Origin: Cytophagales bacterium
GTDB taxonomy: Bacteria > Bacteroidota > Bacteroidia > Cytophagales > MED-G16
Assembly: GCA_045568775.1 (NCBI GenBank)
Contig: JBJLAJ010000001.1
Coordinates: 1,596 to 65,595, forward strand
DNA: 64,000 nt
Reading direction: 5' to 3'
The translations under genes and the position numbers were made by a program. Position 1 is the first letter of the stretch, and each line of letters opens with the position of its first letter. Positions 36,135 through 42,337 of the stretch are shown here, piece after piece. The notes under the pieces were generated by a model. The model worked only from the letters and a program-made list of their open reading frames with translations, ran no database searches and had not been told where the DNA came from.

Positions 36135-36698
36135 TTGAGTTCATTAGAATCAAAGATTGAATCATTAATTTTTTGTTCACCAAAACCTATCAAAGTAAGT
36201 GATATAATTAAAACATTTTCAGAATGTGAAAAAGCAGATTATTCTGAAAAAAAAATTTCAGAGAATATTGAAAGTTTAATTAAAAAATATAAAAATGATA
36301 AGTTTTCTTTTGAGATAATAGAGTCTGGGGGTGGTTTTCAATTTTTAACAAAAAGAGATTATTCTAGATTAAACGAAATATTACTTAAACAACAATCAAG
36401 AAGACGTCTTTCTATATCAGCACTAGAAACATTATCAATAATAGCATATAAACAACCTGTCACAAAATCAGAAATTGAAAAAATAAGAGGCGTTAACTGC
36501 GATTATACTATTCAAAAATTATTAGATAAAGAGTTAATAAGAATAGATGGAAAATCAGATAAAGTTGGAAGACCACTTATATACTCAACAAGTGAAAAGT
36601 TTATGGATTATTTTGGAATAAATAGTCTTGAGCAGTTACCTACAATAAAAGATTTCCAAAAGGAGGAAAATTCTATAGGTGATGAAGAAGAAGCCTGA
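36135..36698 (+). CDS. scpB: SMC-Scp complex subunit ScpB
   Basis: LETLSIIAYKQPVTK, IRGVN, GRPLIY, FMDYFG. Confidence 0.94.
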   Translation: MSSLESKIESLIFCSPKPIKVSDIIKTFSECEKADYSEKKISENIESLIKKYKNDKFSFEIIESGGGFQFLTKRDYSRLNEILLKQQSRRRLSISALETLSIIAYKQPVTKSEIEKIRGVNCDYTIQKLLDKELIRIDGKSDKVGRPLIYSTSEKFMDYFGINSLEQLPTIKDFQKEENSIGDEEEA

Positions 36699-37401
36699 TT
36701 CACAATCAATCCGTCTAAATAAATTTATATCTCTTTCAGGATATTGCAATCGCAGAAATGCAGATGAACTTATAAGTAAGGGAAGGGTCAAAGTAAATGG
36801 GACAAAGTGTACCAAACTTGGAATAAAAGTTGATATAAACGACATTGTTATAGTAGATAAAAAAGAAATAATTTATGGAGAAAAACTTTATATTTTATTA
36901 AATAAGCCTCAAGGGTTTTCAACTAATATTAAAGACGAAGGGAAAAGAGTATTTGATTTATTAAAAAAATTTAAAGAAAAGTTATTTTCTGTTGGAGAGT
37001 TAGATAAAAAATCTATGGGCCTTTTATTACTAACAAATGATAATGATTTAATAAAAAAACTAACATCAAAGTCAAGTGCTTTAAAAAATATTTACAGTGT
37101 GTGTGTAGATAAGGCAATAAAAGAAAGTGAAATTAATCTAATTAAATCAGGATTAATTATTGATAACAAAAAAGTCATACCACAAAAAATCATAAAGTTA
37201 GAAGAAGAAAATAAAGTCGGACTAGAAATAAACTCTGAGGATGATATAGCTATAAAAAAAATATTTGAAAAATTGAATTTTAAAATATCAAAGTTAGATA
37301 GAGTTGTCTTTGGACCATTGACAAAAAAAGATTTACCAAGAGGGAAATGGAGAAAGCTAAAACATAATGAAGTAAGAAATCTAAAATCTTTTATAAATTA
37401 A
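36679..37401 (+). CDS. RsuA/RluB-family pseudouridine synthase with degenerate active-site motifs
   Basis: S4 domain RLNKFISLSG..RRNADELI, LLNKP, VGELD..GLLLLTND, LPRGKWR. Confidence 0.85.
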   Translation: MMKKKPDSQSIRLNKFISLSGYCNRRNADELISKGRVKVNGTKCTKLGIKVDINDIVIVDKKEIIYGEKLYILLNKPQGFSTNIKDEGKRVFDLLKKFKEKLFSVGELDKKSMGLLLLTNDNDLIKKLTSKSSALKNIYSVCVDKAIKESEINLIKSGLIIDNKKVIPQKIIKLEEENKVGLEINSEDDIAIKKIFEKLNFKISKLDRVVFGPLTKKDLPRGKWRKLKHNEVRNLKSFIN

Positions 37402-39800
37402 TTTTCAGTATAATCAGATATCATAGATCTAATATATTTGAGGTGACTTACTGAAGAAAAATCATTAGTCTTCTTGATTTTTATTTTAATTTTTTTATCT
37501 AAGTTGATAATTTCACCAAGCACTATTGATCTAATATCTGATGATTTGAAGTCTATATTTACTCCAAATCTTTTATAATAAGAGGACTGACTCTTATCAT
37601 TTGTCATTATATCAACCAATAAGTTAATATATGTTTTTTGTAAGTTTCTTCTATAAACTTTAATGGGGTCGGAACTTAACATGTCTCCCCATAAACTCAA
37701 ATTAAGATCTTCTATCATGTTATTAATTGAGTATGAATTATTTCTATTTATTGCTTCATTCTCTAACATCCTAGCAAGCCTAGAATAATCAAATAGTCTA
37801 TTTAATGCATAGGTCTGCGCAGACCTCACTCTTTCCAAGGCTCCAATGTTTTCTATTTTATATAACACCTCTTGATCAACCAACCAATCTAGAGAAACAA
37901 AAACGTGATCATTTAAAAACTTAACCGCTTTCTTTTGAATACTTTTTGGAACATGCGCATATACATTTCCTTCTTGATCATTGCTTTTTAAGTCTTCATA
38001 AATTCCTCCTACATTTGTTGAAACATGACCAATATATCTCCTAAATTGAGAGAACACATTTAAATAAAGTTCTTTAAGGTCATCATAGTTTTTCCCTTCT
38101 TCATAGGTCCACTCTATCAGATTGGGAACTATCCTCTTTAGGTTTAAAATTCCATAATAGCTAGCTTCCATATTATCACTCCCAATTGATTCAGTTTGAG
38201 ATCTTGGATCTATTCCATTTGAATAACCAAACCAATAATCATAATTAGATGATTTGTTTTTTATCCACTCATTAAGAGTTTCTCTTTCAGATTCTTTATC
38301 TGCCTTATCAAAATAAGAATACCCCCACTTTACAGACCAAATATCATACTCACCCACCATAGGATAAAAGTTTTTCACTCCATCACCTGGCTGAGCAACA
38401 TAATTAAATCTAGCATAATCCATTATTGAAGGAGCTACACCGTGTGAAGATGTAAAAGAGGGAGACCTAAGGCTATCAACAGAATATGCAAAGCTTGATC
38501 CCATATTATGGGGTAATCCAATAGTATGACCAACTTCATGAGCAGAAACAAATCTTATAAGTTGACCCATTACCTCATCTTCAAATTTAACACCTCTTGA
38601 CTTTTGATTTACAGCAGAAGTTTGTATTAAATACCAGTTTCGTAGAAGATTCATTACATTATGGTACCATCCAATATCACTCTCCAAAATTTCACCTGTT
38701 CTAGGATCAGCTGTATGGGGTCCATATGCATTCTGAATGTCAGAAGCATAATATCTTATCACTGAATATCTTACGTCTTCAGGACTCCAATCAGGGTCTT
38801 CTTCTTTAGTTGGAGGGTACTTACATAAAATAGCATTTTTAAATCCGGCAGCCTCAAACGCAATTTGCCAATCTTCAACTCCCTGTTTTAAATATTTTCT
38901 CCATTTTACCGGAGTTGAGGGATCAATATAATAAACTATAGGTTTAACTGGCTCAACCAATTCTCCTCTATTATATGCTTCTATATCTTTAGGAATTAAT
39001 TTCCATCTTCTAATATAGGATGTTGATTTTGCCTTTTGTTCATCTAAACCGTAATCAGTTTGTGATTGAGAAAAATAACCTACTCTTTTGTCTAAAAATC
39101 TAGGTTGCATTTTATTTTCCGGAAGGATAATCATAGAATTATTTACTTCTAAACTAATAGTTTGAGAGTTTCTTTGAGAAGGAGGTTCAGTAGAGATGTA
39201 AGTCAACACATTTCTAACCTCTATATTTTTTGGAAAACTTTTAACAGATTCCACAAAAGATCTTTTTTTATCTAAAGACGTAATCTTTAGACTTTTTCTT
39301 CTAAACTGAGGGAAACCTAAAGCTTTAATGTCTGTTGTAAAAAGAGGTGTGACATTAATTAGTATAGAACTATCAGACGGATTGTATGCTTCAATTTCAA
39401 ATGATGAAAGTATAGGTTCAAAGTTTGAATTTTTAACAGACTCATAAATAGGAAGTGTATCATTTGCAATATTTTCGTAACTAACAACTCTAAGTAATAT
39501 TTTATCATATTTTTTCTGCCACCTAAGTACCTGAGAGTTAATTTTTTGACCACCATAACCAATTCCGTTCGATGTTTTAGCAATCCTTGTTACCATCAAC
39601 ATCTCTTTACCAAGTAACGAACTCGGTATCTCATAGTACACTTTTTGGTTATTTTGATGAACTTTGAAAAGCCCATCATCAGTTACAAACTCATCGTTAA
39701 TAATTTCTTCGTAAGACTTCTTCTTACTTTCTTTTTCATCTTTCTTTTGAGCAGATAATGTTGACGAGATCATTATGAGACTTAGTAATAAATATTTCAT
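37398..39800 (-). CDS. Secreted zinc metalloprotease (DUF5118/DUF5117/DUF4953 metzincin-like)
   Basis: Start MKYLLLSL signal peptide; PKQ-type PIVYYID, DPRTGEILES, AHEVGHTIGLPHN, SIMDY. Confidence 0.9.
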   Translation of the reverse strand: MKYLLLSLIMISSTLSAQKKDEKESKKKSYEEIINDEFVTDDGLFKVHQNNQKVYYEIPSSLLGKEMLMVTRIAKTSNGIGYGGQKINSQVLRWQKKYDKILLRVVSYENIANDTLPIYESVKNSNFEPILSSFEIEAYNPSDSSILINVTPLFTTDIKALGFPQFRRKSLKITSLDKKRSFVESVKSFPKNIEVRNVLTYISTEPPSQRNSQTISLEVNNSMIILPENKMQPRFLDKRVGYFSQSQTDYGLDEQKAKSTSYIRRWKLIPKDIEAYNRGELVEPVKPIVYYIDPSTPVKWRKYLKQGVEDWQIAFEAAGFKNAILCKYPPTKEEDPDWSPEDVRYSVIRYYASDIQNAYGPHTADPRTGEILESDIGWYHNVMNLLRNWYLIQTSAVNQKSRGVKFEDEVMGQLIRFVSAHEVGHTIGLPHNMGSSFAYSVDSLRSPSFTSSHGVAPSIMDYARFNYVAQPGDGVKNFYPMVGEYDIWSVKWGYSYFDKADKESERETLNEWIKNKSSNYDYWFGYSNGIDPRSQTESIGSDNMEASYYGILNLKRIVPNLIEWTYEEGKNYDDLKELYLNVFSQFRRYIGHVSTNVGGIYEDLKSNDQEGNVYAHVPKSIQKKAVKFLNDHVFVSLDWLVDQEVLYKIENIGALERVRSAQTYALNRLFDYSRLARMLENEAINRNNSYSINNMIEDLNLSLWGDMLSSDPIKVYRRNLQKTYINLLVDIMTNDKSQSSYYKRFGVNIDFKSSDIRSIVLGEIINLDKKIKIKIKKTNDFSSVSHLKYIRSMISDYTEN

Positions 39801-39870
39801 GACATTGGTTAAGTTGATTTTGTATTTAATAAAAGTATATAAAATAAATTCAAAGGACAAAAGAGTAAGG

Positions 39871-39973
39871 TGAGACATTATGTCTCATAATAGTTATATT
39901 ATGTCTCACAATAGTTATATTATATCTCAAAATAGTTATATTTATATAAAATATTAAGTCTCATGGGACATAA
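39871..39973. repeat. Array of six TTATGTCTCA-like boxes including a 21-bp tandem repeat x3
   Basis: Direct boxes at 39878, 39899, 39920, 39954; inverted boxes at 39871 and 39964. Confidence 0.85.
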
Positions 39974-42194
39974 AATAAAGATTAACTCTAACCCTTTAAG
40001 ATCATTTTGCTATTACAACAGCAACGGCAAACGAATAAAAGTATATAATGGCAAGCAGTTTAATGAAGATCTATATCCAAACAAAGAAAAAGATCTTATT
40101 AAAAGAACAGCTCTACTAAAAAGACTGAAAAACATAATTGACTTCAATTTAGGAATATCAAAATCAAATAAAAATCAAAGAAGAAGAAGGTCAGATAACC
40201 TGTATGACCAGAGTGTTTTTAAGGAAAGAATAGCAATAGAGCTTTATGAACATCCAAAATTTGGCTCCAACGCAGCGGCTAACGAAATAGCGAATTTGAT
40301 TAAAGAAAAACAAAAGAATAATAAGAATTGTGTATTAGGTTTAGCTACAGGATCCTCTCCTATTTCAATTTATGAAGAACTTGTCAGAATGCACAAAGAA
40401 GAAAACTTAAGCTTCCATAATGTGATTACATTCAACTTAGATGAATATCTCCCAATGGATCCAAACTCCATACATAGCTACCATAAATTTATGTTTGAAA
40501 ACCTTTTTGATCACATAGACATAGACCCGAATAATATTAATATTCCAAACGGAAATATTGATTCAGATAAAACTGAAAAACATTGTGTCGAATTTGAAAA
40601 TAAAATTAAAAAGGAAGGGGGTTTAGACTTTCAACTTCTTGGAATTGGCAGAAATGGACACATAGGCTTTAATGAACCCGGATCCATTGAATCCTCAGTA
40701 ACCAGAAAAGTTAAAATAGAGATAACTACAAGATTTGATGCCGCAAGTGAATTTGGAGGAATAAATAATGTCCCTAAGGATGCTATTTCTATGGGTATAA
40801 GAACCATAATGAGCGCAAAAAGAGTAGTGCTGGTAGCTTGGGGTGATGGTAAAGCTAAAGTTGTAAAAAAAGCAGTAGAAGAAGAGGAAAACGAATTGGT
40901 GCCGGCTTCATTCTTACAAACACATCCTAATTGTCTCTTTGTTTTAGATAAAGAATCATCATCACAACTTAACAGGATGAACTGTCCATGGGTTTTTACA
41001 GATATCACAAAAAAACCATCATCTATACTTAGTTCTACTATTATTGGATGGACAGATTTTAATATCAAAAAAGCAGTTATATGGTTAAGTATCAAAAAAA
41101 ACAAATCCATATTACAATTAACAGACGAGGACTATCAGGAAAATGGAATGGGAGGGATTTTTGAAAAATATGTGTCAGCATATGAGACAAACATTAAAGT
41201 TTTCAACATGATTCAAAACACAATCACGGGCTGGCCTGGGGGGAAACCTAACGCCGATGACGCAGGAAGACCAGAAAGAGCAAAACCTTCAAAAAAAAGA
41301 GTTTTAATTTTTTCTCCTCACCCAGATGATGACGTAATATCTATGGGAGGAACCTTTGAAAGATTAATTAAACAAGGGCATGAAGTTCATGTGGCGTATA
41401 ACACATCAGGAAACATAGCAGTAAATGACAATAATGTATTAGAAATAACTGAGCTTATACAGAGACTGGTTACTAGCTTACCCCCTAAAGAACTAAATAC
41501 ACTAATGAGCGATGGAAAAAATAAATTGGGAAAAAACCATATTATATGGGCAAGAAACTTCCATAAAAGCATATCTGGCCTATTAATGGAAAAGATTGAT
41601 GTTGATGGTTTTAAAATCGTAAATCAAGTTAAAGGTATAATTAGAAAATCTGAAGCGTATCAAGCGTGTCAATATCTTGGTTTAAAAAATGAAGAGAACA
41701 TACACTATTTAGATATGCCATTTTATCAAACAGGAACCATTAAAAAGAAAGATATATCAGATGAAGATATAAAGATTGTTCAGAATTTAATTACAAAAAT
41801 AAAACCACATCAAATATATGCAGCAGGAGATTTAAGTGATCCTCACGGAACACATAGACTTTGTTTAAGATCAATATATAGAGCAATAGACAATTTAAAA
41901 TCAAAATTATTTATGAAAGACTGTTATGTGTGGTTATACCGGGGAGCTTGGAATGAATGGAAAGTGTATGATATTGATATGTCGGTACCACTTAGCCCTG
42001 AGCAAGTAATAAAAAAACGAAGAGCTATATTTAAGCATCAATCACAGAAAGATGGAATAGTGTTCCCTGGGGAAGATGTAAGGGAATTTTGGCAAAGAGC
42101 AGAAGACAGAAATAAGAATACAGCAGAATTTTTTTCTAAACTAGGGTTTGCAAAATACAGTGCAATGGAAGGATTTAAAAGGTATAGATTTTAA
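39963..42194 (+). CDS. nagB: Glucosamine-6-phosphate deaminase fused to PIG-L domain, with extra N-terminal domain
   Basis: GLATGSSP, FNLDEY, GIGRNGHIGFNEPG; SPHPDDD, DPHGTH; ~80 extra N-terminal residues. Confidence 0.93.
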   Translation: MGHKIKINSNPLRSFCYYNSNGKRIKVYNGKQFNEDLYPNKEKDLIKRTALLKRLKNIIDFNLGISKSNKNQRRRRSDNLYDQSVFKERIAIELYEHPKFGSNAAANEIANLIKEKQKNNKNCVLGLATGSSPISIYEELVRMHKEENLSFHNVITFNLDEYLPMDPNSIHSYHKFMFENLFDHIDIDPNNINIPNGNIDSDKTEKHCVEFENKIKKEGGLDFQLLGIGRNGHIGFNEPGSIESSVTRKVKIEITTRFDAASEFGGINNVPKDAISMGIRTIMSAKRVVLVAWGDGKAKVVKKAVEEEENELVPASFLQTHPNCLFVLDKESSSQLNRMNCPWVFTDITKKPSSILSSTIIGWTDFNIKKAVIWLSIKKNKSILQLTDEDYQENGMGGIFEKYVSAYETNIKVFNMIQNTITGWPGGKPNADDAGRPERAKPSKKRVLIFSPHPDDDVISMGGTFERLIKQGHEVHVAYNTSGNIAVNDNNVLEITELIQRLVTSLPPKELNTLMSDGKNKLGKNHIIWARNFHKSISGLLMEKIDVDGFKIVNQVKGIIRKSEAYQACQYLGLKNEENIHYLDMPFYQTGTIKKKDISDEDIKIVQNLITKIKPHQIYAAGDLSDPHGTHRLCLRSIYRAIDNLKSKLFMKDCYVWLYRGAWNEWKVYDIDMSVPLSPEQVIKKRRAIFKHQSQKDGIVFPGEDVREFWQRAEDRNKNTAEFFSKLGFAKYSAMEGFKRYRF

Positions 42195-42261: not shown

Positions 42262-42337
42262 TGGTGGTGCTGGGTGGACTCGAACCACCGACTCACGGAT
42301 TTTCAGTCCGATGCTCTACCACCTGAGCTACAGCACC
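42262..42337 (-). tRNA. tRNA-Phe (GAA), CCA encoded
   Basis: GGTGCTGTAGCTCAGGTGGTAGAGCATCGGACTGAAAATCCGTGAGTCGGTGGTTCGAGTCCACCCAGCACCACCA, 76 nt cloverleaf. Confidence 0.97.

Follow-up and report, generated by a model that had tools for sequence, protein, structure and literature searches.

Sequence boxes at the start of a long nagB gene

The window analyzed here, a stretch of 64,000 nucleotides from contig JBJLAJ010000001.1 of a Cytophagales bacterium, carries a dense cluster of short repeated boxes at positions 39871-39973 that extends over the start codon of the gene nagB. The genome under study (labeled G000) comprises 1.72 Mb in 11 contigs, has about 30% G+C, and is 94.6% complete. Its nagB open reading frame (39963-42194, plus strand) encodes a 'long' NagB protein of 743 amino acids (aa), in which a Glucosamine_iso domain (residues 103-320) and a PIG-L domain (residues 448-640) are preceded by about 85 additional residues. 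The relationship between these additional residues and the boxes is the subject of this report. The features of the locus, numbered from the first letter of the window, are as follows.

39871-39887, no strand: upstream site U, a divergent pair TGAGACAT-T-ATGTCTCA with cores TGAGAC and GTCTCA and a 5-bp spacer
39877-39942, plus strand: 21-bp tandem repeat in 3.1 copies (ATTATGTCTCAnAATAGTTAT), contributing the boxes at 39899-39908 (exact) and 39920-39929 (ATATCTCA, degenerate)
39937-39944, plus strand: -7-like element TATATTTA, a weak match (7/8) to the Bacteroidota TAnnTTTG
39956-39971, no strand: start-codon site S, with halves AAGTCTCA and TGGGACAT and the 12-mer GTCTCATGGGAC at 39958-39969 around the ATG at 39963
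39963-40172, plus strand: putative arm-type N-terminal domain of NagB (N-domain), residues 1-70, predicted to form three beta-strands and a long helix
40173-40226, plus strand: basic linker NQRRRRSDNLYDQ... between the N-domain and the enzyme, with a predicted local distance difference test score (pLDDT) below 50 for residues 66-80
40269-41882, plus strand: enzyme body of the long NagB (Glucosamine_iso and a PIG-L deacetylase-like domain)
37398-39801, minus strand: divergent DUF4953 Met-zincin gene, a neighbor outside the conserved module

The box TTATGTCTCA occurs exactly at 39878 and 39899, with one-mismatch copies at 39920 (TTATATCTCA) and 39954 (TTAAGTCTCA) and inverted copies at 39871-39880 and 39964-39973, for a total of six TGAGACA/TGTCTCA boxes. 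All six had been listed in a first-pass annotation made from the letters of the window, and all were found where that annotation had placed them. Its description of the first three boxes as a 21-bp tandem repeat agrees with the output of Tandem Repeats Finder (21-bp unit, 3.1 copies, 39877-39942, 93% matches), and the imperfect palindrome that it had noticed on the nagB start codon is likewise present, with GTCTCATGGGAC (39958-39969) straddling the ATG at 39963. At the upstream end, TGAGACAT-T-ATGTCTCA (39871-39887) forms a perfect 8+8 inverted repeat. The number of boxes in the window as a whole is not above chance, with at least 11 matches (at most one mismatch) seen in 25 of 100 shuffles, and it is the clustering that is striking, given that six of the 11 matches of the whole 64-kb window fall within these 103 bases. 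In the whole 1.72-Mb genome this is the sole locus with at least three TGAGACA cores per 120 bp, TGAGACATTATGTCTCA occurs a single time, and no palindrome elsewhere scores as high. A genome-wide regulon of chitin or N-acetylglucosamine (GlcNAc) genes, which the first-pass annotation had proposed looking for, did not materialize, as scans of the genome for the box, the palindrome, and box clusters returned no further site. Another TGAGACA pair (C11:22970-22997) falls within coding sequence and was put down to chance.

The -7 promoter element of Bacteroidota has the consensus TAnnTTTG. A near-consensus element of this type had been suggested at 39937-39944, and TATATTTA is indeed present there, as a weak match (7/8). 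An element of the form TAnnTTT(A/G/T) was seen in 13 of 17 genome loci, either in the interval between the two sites or immediately before the start palindrome, which counts as weak evidence in such AT-rich sequence. A scan for sigma-70 promoters found sites no more numerous than in shuffles, and a 'terminator-like' match from the promoter scan proved to be merely site U read on the minus strand.

Conservation of the sites and of the NagB extension

NagB proteins with the extension are found in 17 genomes of one family, representing three genera (among 41 related genomes), and the fusion locus is syntenic across all 17. The NagB proteins of eight other families of the same order lack the extension, and their alignment begins at residue 73-92. 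When 401 genomes of the order were searched, the N-domain was detected once each in 18 of the 25 family genomes, always in NagB-size frames or in frames cut by contig ends, and also in four of the 376 genomes outside the family, in frames of 376-388 aa. Stop-free fusion frames of 721-766 aa occur in 16 genomes, G000 included, and two more matches end at contig ends. No second copy of the N-domain was found in G000. The linker differs in length among NagB relatives, and its arginine run varies in environmental contigs by in-frame changes in AAG-repeat length (+6 or -3 nucleotides) at 40177/40178.

To examine conservation, 17 genome loci and 38 parsed metagenome loci (42 fetched, 4 unparsable) were collapsed to 45 distinct fusion loci. 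The start palindrome GTCTCATGAGAC is present in every one, with no mismatch in 18, one in 24, two in 2, and three in 1, and in each of the 17 genome loci the nagB start lies within GTCTCATGAGAC or a variant with at most two mismatches. Information content reaches 1.0-2.7 bits only at the 13 positions of GTCTCATGAGACA, and the flanks do not exceed 0.84 bits. The ATG is offset from the palindrome center by -1 in 13 loci, by -8 in three, and by +6 in one, and therefore the conservation of the palindrome is not a coding constraint. Exact copies of GTCTCATGAGAC in the 25 family genomes number nine, all of them at nagB, and a reversed control pattern gave none. Among nine parsed loci whose NagB lacks the extension, including one in the same genus and the same syntenic place, neither GTCTCA nor TGAGAC is present within 250 bp upstream (two further loci were unparsable). 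Thus the co-occurrence of the array with the NagB extension, a check put forward in the first-pass annotation, is borne out by a palindrome in 45 of 45 fusion loci and boxes in none of nine loci without the extension.

The TGAGAC and GTCTCA hexamers of site U and their 5-bp spacing are also kept in the related loci L002-L004, with different letters in the spacer, and synonymous sites between G000 and the L002-L004 species are near saturation (proportion of synonymous differences, pS, about 0.7). On this comparative evidence the box sites are very probably under selection. The earlier proposal that the boxes are protein-binding sites gains from the same evidence, as they behave like selected elements, with the start palindrome present at all 45 loci and its conservation confined to 13 positions.

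The long fused form is replaced by a short NagB, about 250-270 aa in length and 39-43% identical, in three genomes that belong to the same genus (L028 in G015, L029 in G002, and L030 in G012). Two of these three matches contain TAA stops. The L030 locus sits after rluB, in the same syntenic place, without boxes.

Most fusion loci carry, besides the start site, a second one located 42-106 bp upstream of it. A further exact GAGAC/GTCTC core is found within 140 bp upstream in 39 of the 45 loci, whereas about one locus in ten would be expected to have such a core by chance, as estimated from base composition. The upstream arrangements include a second palindrome, TGAGAC-N5-GTCTCA (the G000 group), GTCTCA-N12/13-TGAGAC (L136 and L138), and a single half-site. 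Center-to-center distances between the two sites are near whole helical turns (42, 52-55, 61-63.5, 73, 84.5-87, and 103.5-105.5 bp). A Rayleigh test gives R = 0.69 at 10.5 bp with a phase of 6 degrees (n = 15), and a conservative set (n = 8) gives R = 0.71, a value reached by 270 of 20,000 random draws. These figures are suggestive of helical phasing of both sites.

The 21-bp array varies far more among relatives. Only one unit is present in the close relatives L002-L004, L130-L132, and L134-L135, and in L133 two boxes stand 21 bp apart, separated by another spacer sequence. The array of G000 counts three units, of which the third carries a G-to-A change in the core, and L129, whose N-domain is 99% identical to that of G000, has four perfect units. 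Because short-read contigs of four runs from four studies break within the array, it is clear that the array exists in natural populations. The runs that hold such contigs are labeled marine metagenomes. A 93-base 'skip' joint (X8) was not trusted, as its 24-letter side aligns at low likeness. Since the unit number varies (1, 2, 3, or 4), the tandem expansion behaves like a product of replication slippage. A role in copy-number tuning may still exist, since boxes are always added two helical turns apart and L133 keeps this spacing.

These observations bear on the possibility that the boxes are decaying arm-site relics of an integrative element, that the tandem repeat is the outcome of neutral slippage, and that neither is functional now. 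Unit numbers that differ between lineages, and even between near-identical strains, are what such decay might produce, and the core change in the third box here and the contigs that break in the array in four studies fit the same view. Yet the start palindrome and the upstream cores have been kept over three genera and 45 distinct loci while their flanks are unconserved, synonymous sites are saturated across the same distances, and the protein domain itself appears to be under purifying selection (see below). For the locus as a whole, this explanation is thus quite unlikely, and it may apply to the extra tandem copies alone. The first-pass annotation had named lack of conservation alongside the fusion, or a repeat number varying like that of a neutral slippage repeat, as outcomes that would speak against binding sites. 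Unit number does vary from 1 to 4 in a slippage-like manner, but the box cores and the 21-bp phase are kept, and the boxes are conserved with the fusion.

The genes that surround nagB provide another type of evidence. For the divergent Met-zincin gene, the most likely start is 39801, where a signal peptide shared with relatives begins (MKYLLLSL...), and the ATG at 39878 given in the list of open reading frames, which lies inside site U, is probably too far upstream. The boxes are thus taken to be intergenic. In the 16 fusion loci with a known upstream neighbor, this neighbor is the divergent Met-zincin gene in eight and a co-directional rluB-like gene in eight, and because the motif is kept despite this difference, it can be assigned to nagB. 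In the G000 group, the Met-zincin gene lies between rluB and nagB (region 36679-39801 of the window). The presence of the protease gene here looks polymorphic, through insertion or loss, because rluB directly precedes nagB in the eight other loci. No regulator gene adjoins nagB, whose neighbors are the Met-zincin gene, the rluB-like gene, and genes for Fe-S proteins. On the other side, a tRNA-Phe(GAA) gene is located at window positions 42262-42337 (minus strand), 68 bp downstream of the nagB stop.

It is highly improbable that the array is an active recombination site (att or res) or that it mainly regulates the divergent metalloprotease. There are certain clues that could lead to either conclusion. 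TGTCTCATA resembles the resolvase half-site that the first-pass annotation named, a tRNA-Phe gene lies just downstream of nagB, and the boxes precede the Met-zincin start (39801) by 70-170 bp. Against recombination, no PF00239 gene was found in G000 (94.6% complete) by a search that found the family in 12 of 14 control genomes, and the three PF00589 genes of G000 lie elsewhere, none with a NagB-type N-domain at E<=1. NagB itself has no catalytic recombinase domain (Glucosamine_iso and PIG-L only), and the locus is syntenic and stable across the family. Three suggestions of the first-pass annotation find no support. A relic of a Tn3/gamma-delta resolvase site lacks its PF00239 gene, and the boxes instead match those adjacent to integrases, as described below. 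A tyrosine-recombinase core site lacks an integrase catalytic domain, either attached or adjacent. Control of the metalloprotease fails as the main role, because this gene is replaced by an rluB-like neighbor in 8 of 16 loci and the motif is still kept. Elsewhere in G000, a 392-aa open frame (C6:39172-39576) gives a weak Phage_integrase match (30.4 bits) and has no detectable NagB-type N-domain. It may be the only integrase-size recombinase of this small genome.

The N-terminal domain and the boxes of related integrases

The likely source of the NagB extension is revealed by sequence profile searches. A profile of 15 NagB extensions, run against 1.84 billion representatives, gave 97 matches at E<=1e-3. 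After NagB fragments, the matching proteins are 361-393 aa in length, with one of 477 aa, and align at their extreme N-terminus, and the best integrase match has an E value of 4.6e-11. A Pfam scan of 29 matches placed PF00589 in 20 of them, at about residues 190-360, and the profile aligns to residues 1 to about 75 of these proteins. The other nine scanned matches are a NagB fragment (P0002), an M23 peptidase (P0089), and seven proteins without a family. A first AlphaFold2 (AF2) model based on 15 sequences was poor (pLDDT 64). The model based on a joint alignment of 60 sequences has a pLDDT of 85.6 and predicts strands at residues 6-9, 14-20, and 23-27 followed by a helix at 45-70. According to a published account, the arm-binding domains of lambda and CTnDOT-type integrases likewise consist of three strands and a helix (bioRxiv 10.1101/542381). 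Weak Pfam matches were obtained with the same 60 sequences to Arm-DNA-bind_2 (17/60, best 4.1e-4), Arm-DNA-bind_5 (4/60, best 6.9e-5), and the Tn916 Integrase_DNA family (1/60), all below or near the cut-offs.

It is therefore nearly certain, on the strength of these comparisons, that the NagB N-domain is homologous to the N-terminal domain of integrases. All NagB N-domains form one clade (support 100/97), and thus the tree is consistent with a single fusion event. The residues R13, S14, F15, C16, R24, Y28, N29, P39, N40, and K41 are invariant. Of the 12 pairs for which dS is defined, 11 have a ratio of nonsynonymous to synonymous substitution rates (dN/dS) of 0.015-0.19 for the N-domain, and the twelfth, a near-identical pair (dS 0.04), gives 0.45. 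These ratios indicate that the domain is under purifying selection.

If the domain came from integrases, then integrase genes with the same domain might carry related boxes. The first-pass annotation had suggested a comparison of this kind, and it proved informative, as similar boxes in direct repeat occur just upstream of the ATG of these integrases' own genes. The comparison started from 80 integrase loci with a NagB-type N-domain from named genomes, mostly Sphingobacteriaceae (L049-L128). In the interval from -45 to +5 relative to the integrase ATG, an 8-mer direct repeat, mostly 10-13 bp apart, is present in 46 of 56 loci, whereas the two control windows had such a repeat in 12 of 56 loci apiece. 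At least two G[AC]G[ACT]CA cores are found there on the coding strand in 40 of 56 loci, versus 0/56 on the opposite strand and 1/56 and 0/56 in two distant windows. The boxes upstream of the start codon are typically GTGCGCCAA. The commonest integrase cores are GCGCCA (51) and GCGTCA (19). The nagB core GAGACA occurs eight times, in L092, L103, L120, L121, and L125, and the integrases of these five loci bear TGAGACA itself. On the tree, the closest neighbors of the NagB clade among the integrases (a weakly supported placement, 86/37) have the boxes ATGAGTCA or GTGCGCCA/ATGAGCCA. A class-level search with one integrase (P0015) found only relatives at 30-38% identity, in seven of 401 genomes.

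The type of box changes together with a single residue of the domain. In the strand motif R-S-[F/Y], integrases with F have GAGAC boxes in 7 of 7 cases, whereas those with Y have GCG[CT]C boxes in 36 of 48 (two have GAGAC, and 10 have none or a tie). NagB, with its invariant RSF and its GAGAC boxes, is in line with this rule. The F/GAGAC integrases are spread over several separate branches of the tree, and the events are few.

ARAGORN detected complete tRNA genes at only 18 of 57 integrase loci, a count that leaves aside tRNA-like 3' fragments noticed by eye upstream of many of the others, and tRNA-Phe also adjoins several of the integrases with a NagB-type N-domain (L068, L083, and L114).

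The integrase boxes also bear on two other explanations for the nagB motif. One is that the boxes act in RNA, where the self-complementary AUG region would form a hairpin, or would pair with the upstream copy, and in this way control the initiation of translation. The centroid fold of 39930-40010 does place the AUG in the loop of a 4-bp hairpin, and the variant half-sites TGGGAC and TGAGAT would retain G-U pairs. Nevertheless, at -3.9 kcal/mol (z +1.61) the region is no more stably folded than shuffled sequences, 198 of 200 of which equal or exceed it, a search of Rfam at E<=1 returned nothing, and the variants GTCCCA, TGAAAC, and GACTCA disrupt pairing. In addition, the upstream site is probably located upstream of the (weak) promoter element, and the boxes beside integrases, being direct repeats, are unable to pair. 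A function in RNA is thus very unlikely.

The other explanation takes the palindrome to be an operator for some independent trans-acting factor that serves nagB alone, while the fused domain does some other job such as tethering or oligomerization. Palindromic operators of 12-20 bp over a start site are typical of dimeric repressors, the arrangement at nagB is unlike the direct repeats next to integrase genes, and the link between the N-domain and the boxes comes from sequence comparison. Yet no regulator gene travels with nagB, whose neighbors differ between lineages, and the motif is found only at nagB and only where the N-domain is present. Its core is the one found beside integrases with the same domain and obeys the F/Y rule. 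Furthermore, half-sites in three relative arrangements are more easily reconciled with monomeric domains, each tethered on its own, than with a rigid dimer. A separate factor is therefore unlikely.

Proposed autoregulation by the fused domain and comparison with known systems

The explanation to which we give moderate credence is that the boxes are putative arm-type sites bound by NagB's own N-domain, giving autoregulation. The first-pass annotation had listed integrase arm-type sites for the fused domain as its first option, and the comparative evidence points in this direction because of the homology of the domain, the conservation of the sites, their restriction to nagB, their co-occurrence with the domain, and the similarity and covariation of the boxes. 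NagB molecules would grip the TGAGACA boxes through the N-domain, hung on its flexible basic linker. One bound site would overlap the start codon, and probably the transcription start as well, and the second would lie about a whole number of helical turns upstream. An oligomeric enzyme bound to both sites could then shut off nagB transcription by negative autoregulation, perhaps with formation of a DNA loop, and sugar phosphates could lift the block, as in trigger enzymes such as PutA. Native integrases have the same kind of boxes directly before the ATG, and joint capture of domain and sites from the 5' end of an integrase gene is the probable origin. Slippage in this genome would then have copied part of the upstream site repeatedly, with the new boxes in helical phase.

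Several findings weigh against this autoregulatory interpretation. Integrase boxes are direct repeats 10-13 bp apart upstream of the ATG, while those of nagB are mostly inverted and come in several arrangements, and thus the binding geometry must differ. The start site stands alone in six of the 45 fusion loci. The third unit in G000 is degenerate, and with unit numbers that differ between near-identical strains the extra boxes may be neutral. The N-domain of G000 itself matches no Pfam arm-domain model at E<=1, and a Foldseek search with both AF2 models returned nothing at E<=1e-3, such that the fold is not confirmed by structural search. The top rows from VIA-align are a PH domain (Z 5.2) and an AP2-DNA complex (6sy0_A, Z 5.1, root-mean-square deviation 2.8 over 55 residues), which are tied and fall below the level that separates true relatives. 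A sequence-profile search of the PDB found no relative of the N-domain and nothing meaningful. There are statistical limits as well. A script placed the integrase start codon in 58 of the 80 loci, 56 of them usable, and the core pattern and the F/Y rule were picked after the data had been seen, from loci that are related to one another. In the phasing test, site centers were assigned by the analyst, again for related loci.

A broader proposal can be made more tentatively. It is possible, although doubtful in this full form, that the captured arm domain and arm sites constitute a domesticated regulatory cassette in which NagB serves as a substrate-sensing trigger enzyme that loops DNA and is released by amino-sugar phosphates, with 21-bp slippage tuning the number of operators. 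If this were true, then the cassette would be, within a limited literature search, the first case in bacteria of an AP2/integrase-type arm domain put to use, by exaptation, as the DNA-binding part of a metabolic enzyme, in parallel to the origin of eukaryotic AP2 factors. That search, which had limited coverage and included few subscription journals, returned no NagB with a DNA-binding domain and no bacterial fusion of an enzyme with an arm-binding domain. A housekeeping gene might thus gain a repressor domain and an operator in one step by fusing to the 5' end of an integrase gene, and such a one-protein circuit would be economical for genomes of 1.2-1.8 Mb with few regulators. The covariation of F/Y with GAGAC/GCGCC could represent a recognition rule for this arm-binding domain of Bacteroidota, for which curated Pfam models give no match that reaches their cut-off, and such a rule would aid the prediction of att sites. 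The polymorphic 21-bp array (1-4 boxes) would offer a natural series for relating operator number to expression.

Some known systems share features with the nagB locus. NagC, NagR, and NagQ are dedicated GlcNAc regulators with operators at nag genes and presumed induction by amino sugars, and they resemble the present case in having an operator over the nagB promoter or start. Unlike these systems, no such regulator is adjacent here, and the motif is present at nagB alone, with no regulon found in the genome scans. To our knowledge, the nagB motif is unrelated to the operators of NagC, NagR, or NagQ. The locus also falls outside the class of att sites, as there is no cognate integrase with a catalytic domain and synteny is stable, and outside the Tn3/gamma-delta res-site class, as no resolvase gene was found and the box layout is integrase-like.

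Another parallel might exist with trigger enzymes. PutA and BirA combine the roles of enzyme and repressor, as do NadR and archaeal RbkR, and these known examples use a ribbon-helix-helix or winged-helix domain to bind DNA. As in those proteins, a catalytic domain and a domain of DNA-binding type are present in one conserved reading frame, with a conserved putative operator at the protein's own gene. The NagB module differs in that it would be an integrase arm-type beta-sheet domain with a single target gene.

With integrases, the likeness lies in the domain and in the placement of the sites. The arm domains of lambda Int, Tn916 Int, and CTnDOT IntDOT would be homologous to the N-domain, with three strands and a helix (predicted here), and integrase arm sites are likewise short repeated boxes that adjoin or overlap the start of the domain's own gene. 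A published report describes tRNA-associated int genes as negatively autoregulated via arm-type sites that overlap the promoter, including the intS gene of KplE1, where IntS represses its own promoter through such sites (PMC2951348). For nagB, the equivalent is only proposed. Unlike integrases, NagB has no core-binding or catalytic recombinase domain and carries the arm domain on a metabolic enzyme, its sites are mostly inverted rather than direct with no recombination partner site evident, and inheritance of the locus is vertical, within a family of marine bacteria with small genomes.

A precedent for the recruitment of such a domain exists outside bacteria. In eukaryotes, the AP2-integrase fold has been recruited from mobile elements for the control of transcription (PMC3537659). 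The AP2/ERF and ApiAP2 proteins thus show that a beta-sheet DNA-binding domain from an integrase or mobile element can be recruited for regulation, as is proposed for NagB. They differ in being eukaryotic stand-alone factors, and their structural match to the NagB domain is weak and tied with unrelated folds. By analogy with all of these systems, the nagB array would resemble, in its working, both a trigger enzyme of the PutA or BirA type and an autoregulated integrase gene.

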